A stretch of DNA of 64,000 nt from an uncultured bacterium (GCA_964514655.1 CAZEQY010000008.1:2631-66630), one strand, 5' to 3'. Positions 46,071 through 48,876 are shown, counted from the first letter of the stretch. Program-made: numbers and translations. The notes: a model not told the origin generated them from the letters alone.

Positions 46071-47473
46071 ATGAAGCTATTTGCTATAGCGTTATCCTTA
46101 TTTACTGTCACAGGACAAATCTTTGCCGTTTCTCCTTACACAGGCTCATCAACAGTATTTATACCATTTGCAAATGCTGATACTAACCAGACGCTCGACA
46201 ACTCCCCCACAATTGTAGTTGGCTTCGACAACAAAGATAGGCACACAGAATTTATCATGGACACAGGTTCTGTAGGCATTGTTGCCTCTAAAGACCTCTT
46301 CACACCTGCTCATGATGCAAAAAATTTAGGTAAAGGCCATCAGTACTACACAAGTAGCGGCATCATCGAAGAAGGCACCTGGTGGTCAGCTACACAGCAA
46401 TTTTATGATAAAGATGGCAAACTACTTGCAACAGCAGAAGTGCCCGTACTCCAAGTTACAAGCATCACATGTGCACAACATGCCCGCTCATGTACACCAA
46501 ATGATGATCCTAAAGGCATATCTGTAATGGGCATAGGCTTTGCACGAGAAAGCGCACAGCAACCGCGCGGCACTCCTAACTATAACGCCTTTTTAAACCT
46601 CAAACGCATTCGAAAAAGCGGCAAACTAAAAAAACTCCCTGCAGACTGGTGTAACGGCTATGTTGTAACTCCTAATGGCGTATATCTTGGAATCACAGCG
46701 TCTAATACAGAAGGCGCCGGTTTTGTAAAGCTTGAGCCCTGGCAAGAATTTAGCGACGACGAGTTAAACGAATGGCACGCTGCCCCCATGACACTTCTCA
46801 TTAACGAAGAAGGACAAGAGGGCAATATCCTTATGGTACAGGCGTTGGCACTGCCTACGTATCGCCCCCCACAAATGCAACTGTCGGCACACTTGTCACC
46901 TGCCCAGACGTTGCCCTTGTAGAATGCGCCCCCAATGGCGATGTCTTTGAAATCTACCTGTCAGATCAAACAAACCCGATTGCCTACTACCACTATACTG
47001 TGGGAGAATGTGACAACCCCATGCAGCCAAATGGCAACCATGTTGTGCAGGACTCTAACGTATTTTTAAATACAAGTAGACATGTGCTTGACGGCTTTAA
47101 CATTGTCTACGACAATTCAAATGGCTATATCGGATATGTCTGGAATGGTAATTCTAGTGATACTATAGGCTATGTGCATCCTGCCCTCAAAAGCTCTAGC
47201 GTCACTCTTATGCCATCAGATCAATCTACAAAGGTAGATGAAAACATTACATTTTTTGCGCAAGTGAGCGTTCATGAAGATGAAATCCCTACGGGAGGCG
47301 TATCATTTTTTGTTGATGGAACTATACAGTATGCTCCTTTAGATAGCACTGGAGGCGCATCCTATACAACATCCTTTAGCAAAAAGGGCACCTACACAAT
47401 ACGTGCAAGCTACTCAGGCGACAACACCTACCAACGCTCAAACACGTCAAAATATAGGCTCAAAGTAAAATAA
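46071..47473 (+). pseudogene. pepsin-like aspartic protease paralog disrupted by a 1-nt deletion near 46836-46838
   Basis: ATG at 46071 after GGAGG. It is collinear with the intact paralog 47485..48876 up to ...EGNILM. The paralog then reads atg gat acc ggc, whereas this copy reads atg g-t aca ggc. Restoring one base joins ORF ..46922 to ORF 47000..47473 with no intervening stop (my translation: TGVGTAYVSPPTNATVGTLVTCPDVALVECAPNGDVFEIYL...). Confidence 0.7.
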
Positions 47474-47484
47474 CAGAGTACTTT

Positions 47485-48876
47485 ATGAATATACTACTTA
47501 TCCTTAGCTGCCTGGCAGCTTGCCTCACTTGCGAAGCAAAAAGCTTTTATCCAGATGCTCCAAGCGTCTATATCCCCTATTCTAACCAGGCAAGCAATAA
47601 ATCACCGCGAGTATACGTTGGCTTTGATGGCTCTAGCAACTATGTAGAGCTTATCATGGATACAGGCTCTGTAGGGCTTATTGTCTCAAAAGACATTTTC
47701 ACACCAAAATCTGATGCCAAAAATTTGGGCCCCGGGCGCCAGGTCTACACAAGTAGCGGTATTATTGAAGAGGGCACTTGGTGGACAGCTACTCAGCAGT
47801 TTTATGATAAAAATGGCACTCTTGTTGCAACAGCAGAAGTACCCGTATTGCAGGTAACCTCCATAAAATGTACAGCAGATGCCCGATCATGCACACCTAC
47901 AGATAACCCCAAAGGCGTTACTGTTATGGGTATTGGCTTTGCAAGAGAAAGCGCTGAGCAGCCTCTTGGCACGCCGGCATACAATGCCTTTTTAAACGTT
48001 ACAGGCATCGTGATAGATAACAAGCTTGAAAAACGCCCTGCAAACTGGTGTAACGGCTATGTCATATCACCAAATGGCGTACATCTTGGCCTCAATGCTG
48101 ATAACACTGGCAATGCCGGCTTTGTAAAGCTTGAGCCATGGCAAGAATTTTCTTCGACAGACCTTCCTGAATGGCATGCTGCCCCTATGACTCTTATACT
48201 TAATGGCACAGGCCAAGCGGGTAACATCCTGATGGATACCGGCGTTGATACAGCATTTGTATCACCCCCAAGTGGCTCAAATGTAGGCACGCTTGTACCA
48301 TGCCCTGATTCAGCCCGCGTTGAGTGCGCCCCAAACGGCGATCTTTTTGAAATCTACCTGCCGGATCAGGCAAATCCAGTAGCCTACTACCGATTTACGC
48401 TAGGCGACTCTAATAACCCGATGCAGCCAAATGGCGCACATGTCGTAAGTGATACAAATGTCTTTCTTAATACAAGCCGCCATGTACTAGATGGGATGAA
48501 CATCATCTACGACAACAAACATGGCTACATTGGCTATGTCTGGAATGAATTAAGCCCAGGTAGCGTAGGCTATGTAGATCCTGCTCAAGTAACTCCACGA
48601 GTTATCCTCACAGCATCTGAAAAGATCGTAAAGCCAACAGATAACGTGACAGTACTTGCTACTGTGCTTGGAGCTACACAAGATGGCACTCCTACAGGAG
48701 GCATCACCTTTATCATCGATAAAGTGCGAGAATATGTTCCACTCGACAGCAACGGCCAGGCCACACTATCTGTAAACTTCACCCATGACGGGACCTACAA
48801 AGTATGCGCAAGCTATTCTGGAGACTCTACATACACGCGCGCTTGCTCTAATCCGTGCAAGATTAAAGTGAAATAA
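47485..48876 (+). CDS. secreted bilobal pepsin-like (A1-like) aspartic protease with a C-terminal bacterial Ig-like domain
   Basis: 463 aa. Signal peptide MNILLILSCLAACLTCEA. Two catalytic-type motifs, ELIMDTGSVGLIV (D59, nt 47659) and NILMDTGVDTAFV (D251, nt 48235), lie 192 residues apart. VTVMGIGFARE is like pepsin's GILGLGY, and NVFLNTSRHVLDGMNIIYDNKHGYIGYV is like pepsin's VFIRQYYTVFDRANNKVGLA. The C-terminal ASYSGDSTYTRA is typical of Big_3-like Ig domains. Confidence 0.6.
   Translation: MNILLILSCLAACLTCEAKSFYPDAPSVYIPYSNQASNKSPRVYVGFDGSSNYVELIMDTGSVGLIVSKDIFTPKSDAKNLGPGRQVYTSSGIIEEGTWWTATQQFYDKNGTLVATAEVPVLQVTSIKCTADARSCTPTDNPKGVTVMGIGFARESAEQPLGTPAYNAFLNVTGIVIDNKLEKRPANWCNGYVISPNGVHLGLNADNTGNAGFVKLEPWQEFSSTDLPEWHAAPMTLILNGTGQAGNILMDTGVDTAFVSPPSGSNVGTLVPCPDSARVECAPNGDLFEIYLPDQANPVAYYRFTLGDSNNPMQPNGAHVVSDTNVFLNTSRHVLDGMNIIYDNKHGYIGYVWNELSPGSVGYVDPAQVTPRVILTASEKIVKPTDNVTVLATVLGATQDGTPTGGITFIIDKVREYVPLDSNGQATLSVNFTHDGTYKVCASYSGDSTYTRACSNPCKIKVK

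Follow-up and report, generated by a model that had tools for sequence, protein, structure and literature searches.

A stretch of 64,000 nucleotides (nt) from an uncultured bacterium (GCA_964514655.1 CAZEQY010000008.1:2631-66630), called the window hereafter, carries at positions 46,071 to 48,876 two adjacent genes, which we refer to as copy A and copy B. Two-lobed aspartic proteases are textbook eukaryotic enzymes, and a preliminary description of the window, made from the sequence alone, had nevertheless taken both genes for secreted proteases of this kind, of which the upstream one is frameshifted. How far can such an assignment be carried for a bacterial protein? Copy B is intact and is taken as the functional gene of the pair, and as far as fold and homology by themselves are concerned, we are nearly certain that it encodes a pepsin-fold protein related to aspartic proteases. 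Whether it is also an exported and active enzyme is a question of graded answers, which are given below together with the state of copy A and the distribution of the family.

The tandem genes and their D-T-G motifs

The two genes and their parts are listed in Table 1, and what the preliminary description had noted in the sequence is confirmed throughout. When one base is restored in copy A, its product has 467 amino acids (aa) and is 61% identical to that of copy B, the identity at the DNA level being 65%. Promoter and terminator scans gave numbers of sites no higher than those in shuffled sequences.

Table 1. Coordinates of the tandem genes and their parts, counted from the first letter of the window
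Feature	Position	Strand	Remark
Tandem pair, copy A then copy B		(+) both	Copy B starts 11 nt past the copy A stop
Shine-Dalgarno-like GGAGG	46062..46066	(+)	4 nt ahead of the copy A ATG; read directly in the sequence
Copy A, whole	46071..47473	(+)	ATG at 46071; TAA at 47471-47473
Copy A 5' part, original frame	46071..46835	(+)	Signal-like N-terminus, N-lobe with DTGS, start of C-lobe to Met255
Copy A Asp64 codon	46260-46262	(+)	N-lobe DTGS
Copy A frameshift site	46836..46837	(+)	'GT', remnant of the GAT codon for the second catalytic Asp
Copy A 3' part, shifted frame	46838..47473	(+)	Rest of C-lobe (TGVG..., FLNTSRH, YDNSNGYIGY) and Big_3_5
Copy B, intact gene, 463 aa	47485..48876	(+)	Same protein as P0001 in the database
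Copy B predicted Sec signal peptide, aa 1-18, MNILLILSCLAACLTCEA	47485..47538	(+)	Hydropathy; putative cleavage site
Copy B two-lobed pepsin-fold protease domain, about aa 27-366	47563..48582	(+)	AlphaFold/Foldseek matches to BACE1/2; collinear hhalign alignment to pepsin
Copy B N-lobe catalytic motif D59-T-G-S	47659..47670	(+)	Aligns with DTGS of 4EHC and Asp32 of pepsin
Copy B predicted flap hairpin, strands aa 80-88 and 93-100	47722..47784	(+)	Secondary structure of the model
Copy B N-lobe psi-loop-like V-M-G149-I-G151	47923..47937	(+)	90 residues past Asp59
Copy B C-lobe catalytic motif D251-T-G-V	48235..48246	(+)	Aligns with Asp215 of pepsin; collinear with DSG of 4EHC
Copy B C-terminal signature F-L-N329-T-S-R-H ... 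I-Y-D343-N-K-H-G-Y-I-G350	48463..48534	(+)	hhalign onto pepsin I-L-G302-D ... V-F-D314 ... V-G321
Copy B Big_3_5 Ig-like domain, aa 375-462	48607..48870	(+)	PF16640; all-beta in the model

Exactly two D-T-G tripeptides are present in copy B, at residues 59 and 251, and their distance is 192 residues as the preliminary description had it, compared with 183 in pepsin. Copy A has the tripeptide at residue 64, while the second motif, at residue 256, is broken in the sequence as it stands. At least two D-T-G tripeptides were found in 296 of 20,000 shuffles of copy B (about 1.5%), so that the motifs alone are only mildly unusual and prove little. Conservation was counted over 76 homologs that are 27-47% identical to copy B. 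At the first motif, D is found in 75, T in 74 and G in all 76 of them, and the following S in 72. At the second motif, D and G are found in all 76, and the middle position is T, S or A in 66, 7 and 3 sequences, respectively. It is this conservation that settles the matter: homology search places the protein in a family in which both D-T-G motifs are essentially invariant.

Other segments that recall landmarks of the pepsin fold accompany these motifs. The psi-loop-like segment VMGIGFARE, pointed out in the preliminary description, is present with its G149 and G151 conserved in 76/76 homologs, and so is the C-terminal segment VFLNTSRH...IYDNxxGYIGY, in which D343 (76/76) and N329 (75/76) stand out. 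Tyr88 is invariant in the close family and varies in the wider family, in which 49 of the 76 sequences have Y and 26 have L. From the first Asp to the psi-loop Gly there are 90 residues both in copy B (M148-G149) and in pepsin (Asp32 to Gly122), and the last Asp and Gly of the C-terminal segment are 7 residues apart in both proteins.

Predicted fold and distant relatives

Two independent AlphaFold2 models were obtained with the family alignment as input, one for full-length copy B (pLDDT 89.4, pTM 0.85) and the other for the protease domain alone (pLDDT 91.8, pTM 0.88). When they were compared with the PDB by Foldseek, the best 50 matches of each model were all family-A1 enzymes, namely BACE1 and BACE2, with E-values from 5.5e-12 to 4e-10, probability 1.00, about 370-410 aligned columns, TM scores of 0.50-0.57 and sequence identities of 10-14%. 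In total, 324 and 552 matches of the two models lie at E <= 1e-3. The models match A1 enzymes across both lobes, which bears out, at the level of predicted structure, the two-lobe pepsin fold proposed earlier, and since both lobes reside in one chain with a D-T-G of their own, the single-chain layout can also be kept instead of a retropepsin monomer. Two findings that would have refuted the preliminary description, models lacking a bilobal pepsin fold and placement in a family without conserved D-T-G motifs, did not turn up. A beta-strand is located before and after each D-T-G in the models. A hairpin at aa 80-100, with Tyr88 adjoining its turn, is the putative flap over the substrate, and the fold match together with the register of the motifs suggests that the two catalytic Asp residues are apposed in a common cleft.

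At the level of sequence, relatives come into sight only with broad profiles. PDB sequence searches found no A1 chain: a single sequence retrieved noise only (SH2 domains at E ~1), a profile of the close family retrieved nothing, and only the broader profile reached 4EHC. This broad family profile hits 4ehc_A, the solved aspartic-proteinase domain of PE_PGRS16, at E 4.2e-6, with 'tmDTGStGivv' aligned on 'LLDTGSTGLVM' and a second collinear stretch on DSG. It is to be noted that 4EHC is not among the best 50 structural matches listed for each model (of 324 and 552), a list filled by BACE entries. When the window proteins were scanned with Pfam and NCBIfam, Big_3_5 was the only hit, with no aspartic-protease model and no NCBIfam family, and the family is outside every curated model. 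Among curated families, PF20729, the PE-PGRS C-terminal aspartyl peptidase-like domain, comes closest. It matches 24 of the 76 wider members (best E 5e-12) and gives 24-28 bits with close homologs, its cut-off being 33; the only member above this value is P0197, a distant one with PEP-CTERM, at 46.2 bits. Retropepsin-type models (PF13650, PF13975 and PF00077) match weakly at the D-T-G regions of family members, and PF13650 does so at the D-T-G motifs of 21 of the 76.

Direct comparison with pepsin was made with the porcine sequence, which was checked to be identical to 1f34_A. With the broad profile, hhalign gave a collinear alignment of residues 39-355 on pepsin residues 14-326 (E 0.011), which pairs D59 with D32, MGIG with ILGL, D251 with D215, N329 with G302, D343 with D314 and G350 with G321. 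With the close-family profile, only a short C-lobe alignment was obtained (E 0.04). Profiles of the N-lobe and the C-lobe also align with each other with their D-T-G motifs in register (E 0.017), as is expected of an enzyme with duplicated lobes.

Which known enzymes, then, resemble copy B most? PecA (PE_PGRS35), PE_PGRS16 and PE26, which PF20729 and 4EHC represent, share with the predicted features of the window proteins that they are bacterial, extracytoplasmic, single-chain and two-lobed, that each lobe has its D-T/S-G and that a prosegment is lacking, and homology of PecA/PE_PGRS16 with the window family is detectable through the 4EHC match and its aligned motifs. PecA, the nearest characterised relative, is catalytically active as an aspartic protease of the cell surface; its DTG and DSG are 177 residues apart, and it processes PE_PGRS proteins and itself (PMC6819658). 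These mycobacterial proteins differ from the window proteins in several points. They are exported by a PE domain and type VII secretion, whereas the window proteins have a predicted Sec-type signal, and they carry the PE domain and a PGRS linker, neither of which exists in the window proteins, where the protease directly follows the signal-like N-terminus. The PF20729 model covers 265 positions compared with about 340 residues of the window domain, and the second motif of PecA/PE_PGRS16 is DSG instead of DTG. Furthermore, the window family belongs to Gram-negative phyla and has a Big_3_5 or autotransporter module.

The A1 enzymes pepsin and BACE1/2 share with copy B the order and similar spacing of the landmarks (DTGS, the Tyr of the putative flap, the N-lobe psi-loop-like Gly, DTG and the C-terminal F/Y-D...G). 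They have a different cysteine pattern, and a Gly in the C-lobe psi-loop where the window family has Asn, together with Val/Ile/Leu after the second DTG. Among bacterial enzymes, shewasins A and D resemble the window proteins in lacking a prosegment, but they have no signal peptide and are cytoplasmic (PMC4814920), in contrast to the predicted export signals of the window family. APRc of Rickettsia conorii offers a parallel as an aspartic protease of an obligate intracellular bacterium with a location at the envelope (PMC4140852). It is, however, a retropepsin, a single-lobe protein that dimerises to form the active site, while the window proteins carry both lobes in one chain.

Proposed export and activity

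The N-termini of both copies are strongly hydrophobic, as an appended signal peptide would require, and the mean Kyte-Doolittle hydropathy over the first windows of copy B is 2.3-3.0. This segment is a low-confidence helix in the models, and homologs have equivalent N-termini. A lipoprotein reading of copy B, suggested by L-A-A-C at residues 10-13, was rejected, because the signal of copy A has no Cys, none is conserved in homologs and a charged n-region is lacking. Asp59 comes about 40 residues past the putative cleavage site, which leaves no room for a prosegment of the pepsinogen type. At least 90% of the wider family retain Cys129 and Cys136, and Cys273 and Cys281 are conserved in the close family; these pairs may form disulfides of an exported protein.

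At the other end, the Ig-like domain announced in the preliminary description is found above the Pfam cut-off in both copies: Big_3_5 (PF16640, cut-off 35.5) scores 55.3 bits in copy B (E 1e-14) and 61.7 bits in the 3' open reading frame (ORF) of copy A (E 9.8e-17), and its ASYSGD-TY motif is present. The same tail occurs in the closest homologs, which are chlamydial. Members from other lineages carry, behind the same catalytic domain, either PATR repeats with an autotransporter beta-barrel or PEP-CTERM. The Pfam scan found no autotransporter beta-barrel (PF03797) in either window copy, and some homologs of other phyla have one. Taken together, these features point to an extracytoplasmic enzyme that is often displayed on the cell surface.

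From these elements the following scheme can be drawn. The Sec signal peptide would carry the protein out of the cytoplasm. There, Asp59 (in D-T-G-S) and Asp251 (in D-T-G-V), one from each lobe and sharing a cleft, would activate a water molecule, by which a peptide bond is cut, and the hairpin of residues 80-100 with Tyr88 by its turn would serve as the flap. The role of the Big_3_5 tail is probably to hold or place the enzyme at the cell envelope or on its substrate. We have moderate confidence that copy B is an active protease working through Asp59 and Asp251, and the whole package, that is, a Sec-exported, catalytically active, two-lobed pepsin-fold endopeptidase with an Ig-like tail, seems likely to us. 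By the precedent of PecA, its role would most likely be protein processing at the bacterial surface or in the lumen of the vacuole.

What speaks against such an exported enzyme? PF00026, TAXi_N and TAXi_C have no match at E <= 10 among the window proteins and 49 homologs, and PF00026/TAXi have none at E <= 0.01 among the 76 wider members. To judge by the BACE1/2 matches, the family is A1-like in fold, but it is not a member of A1. The score of PF20729 on the copy B domain (20.5 bits, E 3.4e-4) is below the threshold of 33, the pepsin comparisons by sequence only, at E 0.011-0.04, are statistically weak, and the TM scores of 0.50-0.57, with root-mean-square deviations of 6-8 Å, mean the same fold with substantial divergence. 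The signal peptide was judged by eye and hydropathy alone, and no gene neighbourhood is conserved across the chlamydial loci, hence no clue to a substrate. Around the active site, the second DTG is followed by Val, Ile or Leu instead of Thr/Ser, and the C-lobe psi-loop Gly, G302 in the I-L-G of pepsin, is replaced by Asn329.

The last two points lead to an alternative that we regard as fairly improbable, namely that copy B is a catalytically inactive pepsin-fold protein, such as a binding protein, an adhesin or an inhibitor, which the Ig-like tail, or in other members the autotransporter, displays on the surface. Inactive pepsin-fold proteins are exemplified by plant TAXI-I and cockroach allergen Bla g 2, and possibly by PE_PGRS16. 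Fusion to adhesin-type modules (Big_3_5, PATR and autotransporter) is indeed common in the family. However, pepsin-fold proteins without catalysis are known to lose their D-T-G motifs, and the Asp and Gly of both motifs are invariant or nearly so in 76 sequences of only 27-47% identity, as would be expected for catalytic residues under selection. Retropepsins and renin, moreover, have Ala, a small non-hydroxyl residue, after DTG and are active. The neighbouring family offers precedents on both sides: for PE_PGRS16, the nearest relative with a solved structure, proteolysis was not detected (PMC6819658), but PecA is an active protease. Still another view is that the D-T-G motifs arose by chance in a protein of unrelated fold and function. 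To its credit are the frequency of paired D-T-G tripeptides in composition-matched shuffles and the lack of any curated family model above threshold for the protease part. This view is refuted by the family-wide conservation of both motifs, by two confident models whose best 50 matches each are A1 proteases only, and by the family profile that reaches 4EHC, and the collinear alignment with pepsin also counts against it; its probability is negligible.

Copy A, the source organism and the family

Copy A, as sequenced, meets a premature TAG at 46920-46922 and ends after 283 aa; this ORF (46071..46922) is the database protein P0056. When the two genes are aligned as DNA, only one gap in the gene body breaks the frame; there, copy A reads ATG-GT-ACA-GGC and copy B ATG-GAT-ACC-GGC. 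The 1-nt deletion that the preliminary description had put near 46836 can now be placed between 46836 and 46837, within the Asp codon of the second D-T-G. Copy A as sequenced is thus unable to make a two-Asp enzyme, and its 3' part is outside the reading frame opened at its start. That the only lesion hits one of two catalytic codons among 467 is a striking coincidence, though a single event. Programmed frameshifting was considered and rejected, because the site has neither a slippery heptamer nor a homopolymer and even slippage by -1 would give Gly in place of the catalytic Asp.

Is the missing base real? The shifted frame stays open for 212 codons, which none of 2000 shuffles equalled, and for the protease part 3' of the frameshift the ratio of nonsynonymous to synonymous substitution rates (dN/dS) against copy B is 0.11. 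The lesion must therefore be very recent, or an error. We consider it somewhat more probable that it is a genuine, recent pseudogene mutation, in which case the true sequence is ATGGTAC. The alternative, a sequencing or assembly error that hides two intact genes, both functional in the organism, with ATGGATAC as the true stretch, is a serious one that falls a little short of probable. Besides the open frame and the low dN/dS, it can appeal to the restored copy A, which reads through all its 467 codons with every family motif intact, and to the source, a draft contig of an uncultured organism. Another metagenome-assembled member of the family is also split across frames: the autotransporter-fused protein at 5935..8945 of locus L067, from an alphaproteobacterial metagenome-assembled genome (MAG), is divided into two overlapping frames near residue 205. 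On the other hand, no homopolymer run is present at ATGG^TAC, other parts of the window hold long unbroken ORFs (up to 1755 aa) that argue against an error-ridden assembly, and a very recent genuine mutation would give an identical picture. No independent assembly was found, P0001 and P0056 each being on one contig only.

To what kind of bacterium does the window belong? Its AlaRS shares 78% identity with a Chlamydiales protein and 62% with one from Parachlamydiaceae. For its EF-P and the phosphorylase next to it, the values are 95% and 94%, respectively, against their counterparts on a contig of a Chlamydiales MAG (L001), which holds an ortholog of copy B (72.5%) in the matching position. These identities indicate that the source is an uncultured environmental chlamydia, for which the taxonomy suggests an intracellular life. 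EF-P and phosphorylase as neighbours of the protease are shared with this close relative only. In L001, a repeat-rich protein of 1294 aa (32..3916, plus strand) is encoded two genes upstream of its single protease gene. Two records carry other labels: a 60%-identical protease homolog on a contig labelled as a Bacteroidetes MAG (L007), and an AlaRS labelled Verrucomicrobia (P0352) with 71% identity. They may be mis-binned chlamydial contigs or transfers.

A word-indexed search with the N-terminal 370 residues gave 83 homologs, and an exhaustive profile search at E <= 1e-3 gave 961 cluster representatives at 50% identity, 686 of them at E <= 1e-10 and 234 at E <= 1e-30. With one genome per species, 198 loci have relatives. 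The best genome matches are MAGs of Chlamydiota at 51-71% identity, including a Waddliaceae contig of 1.3 Mb, and next come many Alphaproteobacteria at 34-40%, such as Reyranella massiliensis, R. soli, R. aquatilis, Roseococcus and other Rhodospirillales. Named protein matches also occur in Verrucomicrobia and Hyphomicrobium. In public records, the members are labelled 'hypothetical' or are named for the autotransporter part only. How rare, then, are such proteins in bacteria? The rarity claimed in the preliminary description agrees with published reports, in which bacterial genes of family A1 are known from seven species, with no export signals and a cytoplasmic product in the case studied (PMC4814920), PecA being a further example, but it does not hold for the present family with its hundreds of representatives.

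Copy A has no closer relative than copy B and is 55-60% identical to all other chlamydial members. Such distances indicate an old paralog. Among the nine closest loci, mostly of chlamydial MAGs (L001-L008 and L010), the tandem pair is found in the window only. Two protease domains lie on one strand about 2 kb apart in an uncultured alphaproteobacterium (L011, 6085..10154), and two adjacent ones on one strand in a Roseococcus sp. (L014, 4512..7035), so that local duplication of the protease gene recurs in other lineages.

Several other genes of the window may be mentioned. Collagen triple-helix (G-X-Y) proteins are encoded on the minus strand at 44737..45975 and 1209..3572 (Pfam Collagen E 2e-21 and 9e-19). 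The former starts with a signal-like segment; its gene and copy A are divergently transcribed, and it is not a conserved protease neighbour in other loci. An RHS-repeat protein of 1755 aa with DUF6531 (36997..42264, minus strand) is followed by two small ORFs without family match (36467..37000 and 35929..36516, minus strand), and the three could be a polymorphic-toxin/immunity arrangement. A protein of 939 aa (56625..59444, minus strand) has a protein-tyrosine-phosphatase domain at aa 171-385 (E 7e-10) as well as a ubiquitin-family domain at aa 553-624 (E 5e-12) and is a eukaryote-like candidate effector.

Would the protease, too, be directed at the host? It is conceivable that it leaves the bacterium and cleaves proteins of an amoeba or other host in the vacuole or cytosol. 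In favour of this, the organism belongs to the chlamydiae, the window encodes other eukaryote-like candidate effectors, for example the phosphatase/ubiquitin protein, and many non-chlamydial members are from Reyranella, a genus that includes an amoeba-associated isolate. However, no secretion signal beyond Sec and no linkage to type III or type II secretion is found in the window, the family is common in Alphaproteobacteria without known intracellular lifestyle, and PecA works on surface proteins of the bacterium itself. We therefore consider a host-directed effector unlikely; cleavage of host proteins is possible and less supported than processing at the bacterial surface.

In the literature on chlamydial pepsin-like proteases, on aspartic-protease passengers of autotransporters and on PF20729, no prior description of the family was found. 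Its members, spread over Chlamydiota, Alphaproteobacteria and Verrucomicrobia, have three probable modes of display: a Sec signal with an Ig-like tail, an autotransporter, or PEP-CTERM. For two-lobed aspartic proteases outside mycobacteria, these predicted export architectures have no earlier description, and the phylum of the window is one without an earlier report. The fold itself is classical, and no new catalytic principle is involved. As a tentative view of wider scope, copy B might stand, within the chlamydiae, for a large and as yet unnamed family of pepsin-fold endopeptidases that are exported and active outside the cytoplasm, at the interface between bacterium and host or environment. 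If this is the case, the view of two-lobed aspartic proteases as rare and mostly cytoplasmic in bacteria would be overturned, and a new class of secreted protease would be added to what is known of environmental chlamydiae. An active enzyme would also widen the known distribution of bacterial pepsin-fold proteases and bear on the origin of the duplicated-lobe fold, and in environmental chlamydiae it would be a candidate, open to testing, for the processing of surface proteins or for interaction with the host.

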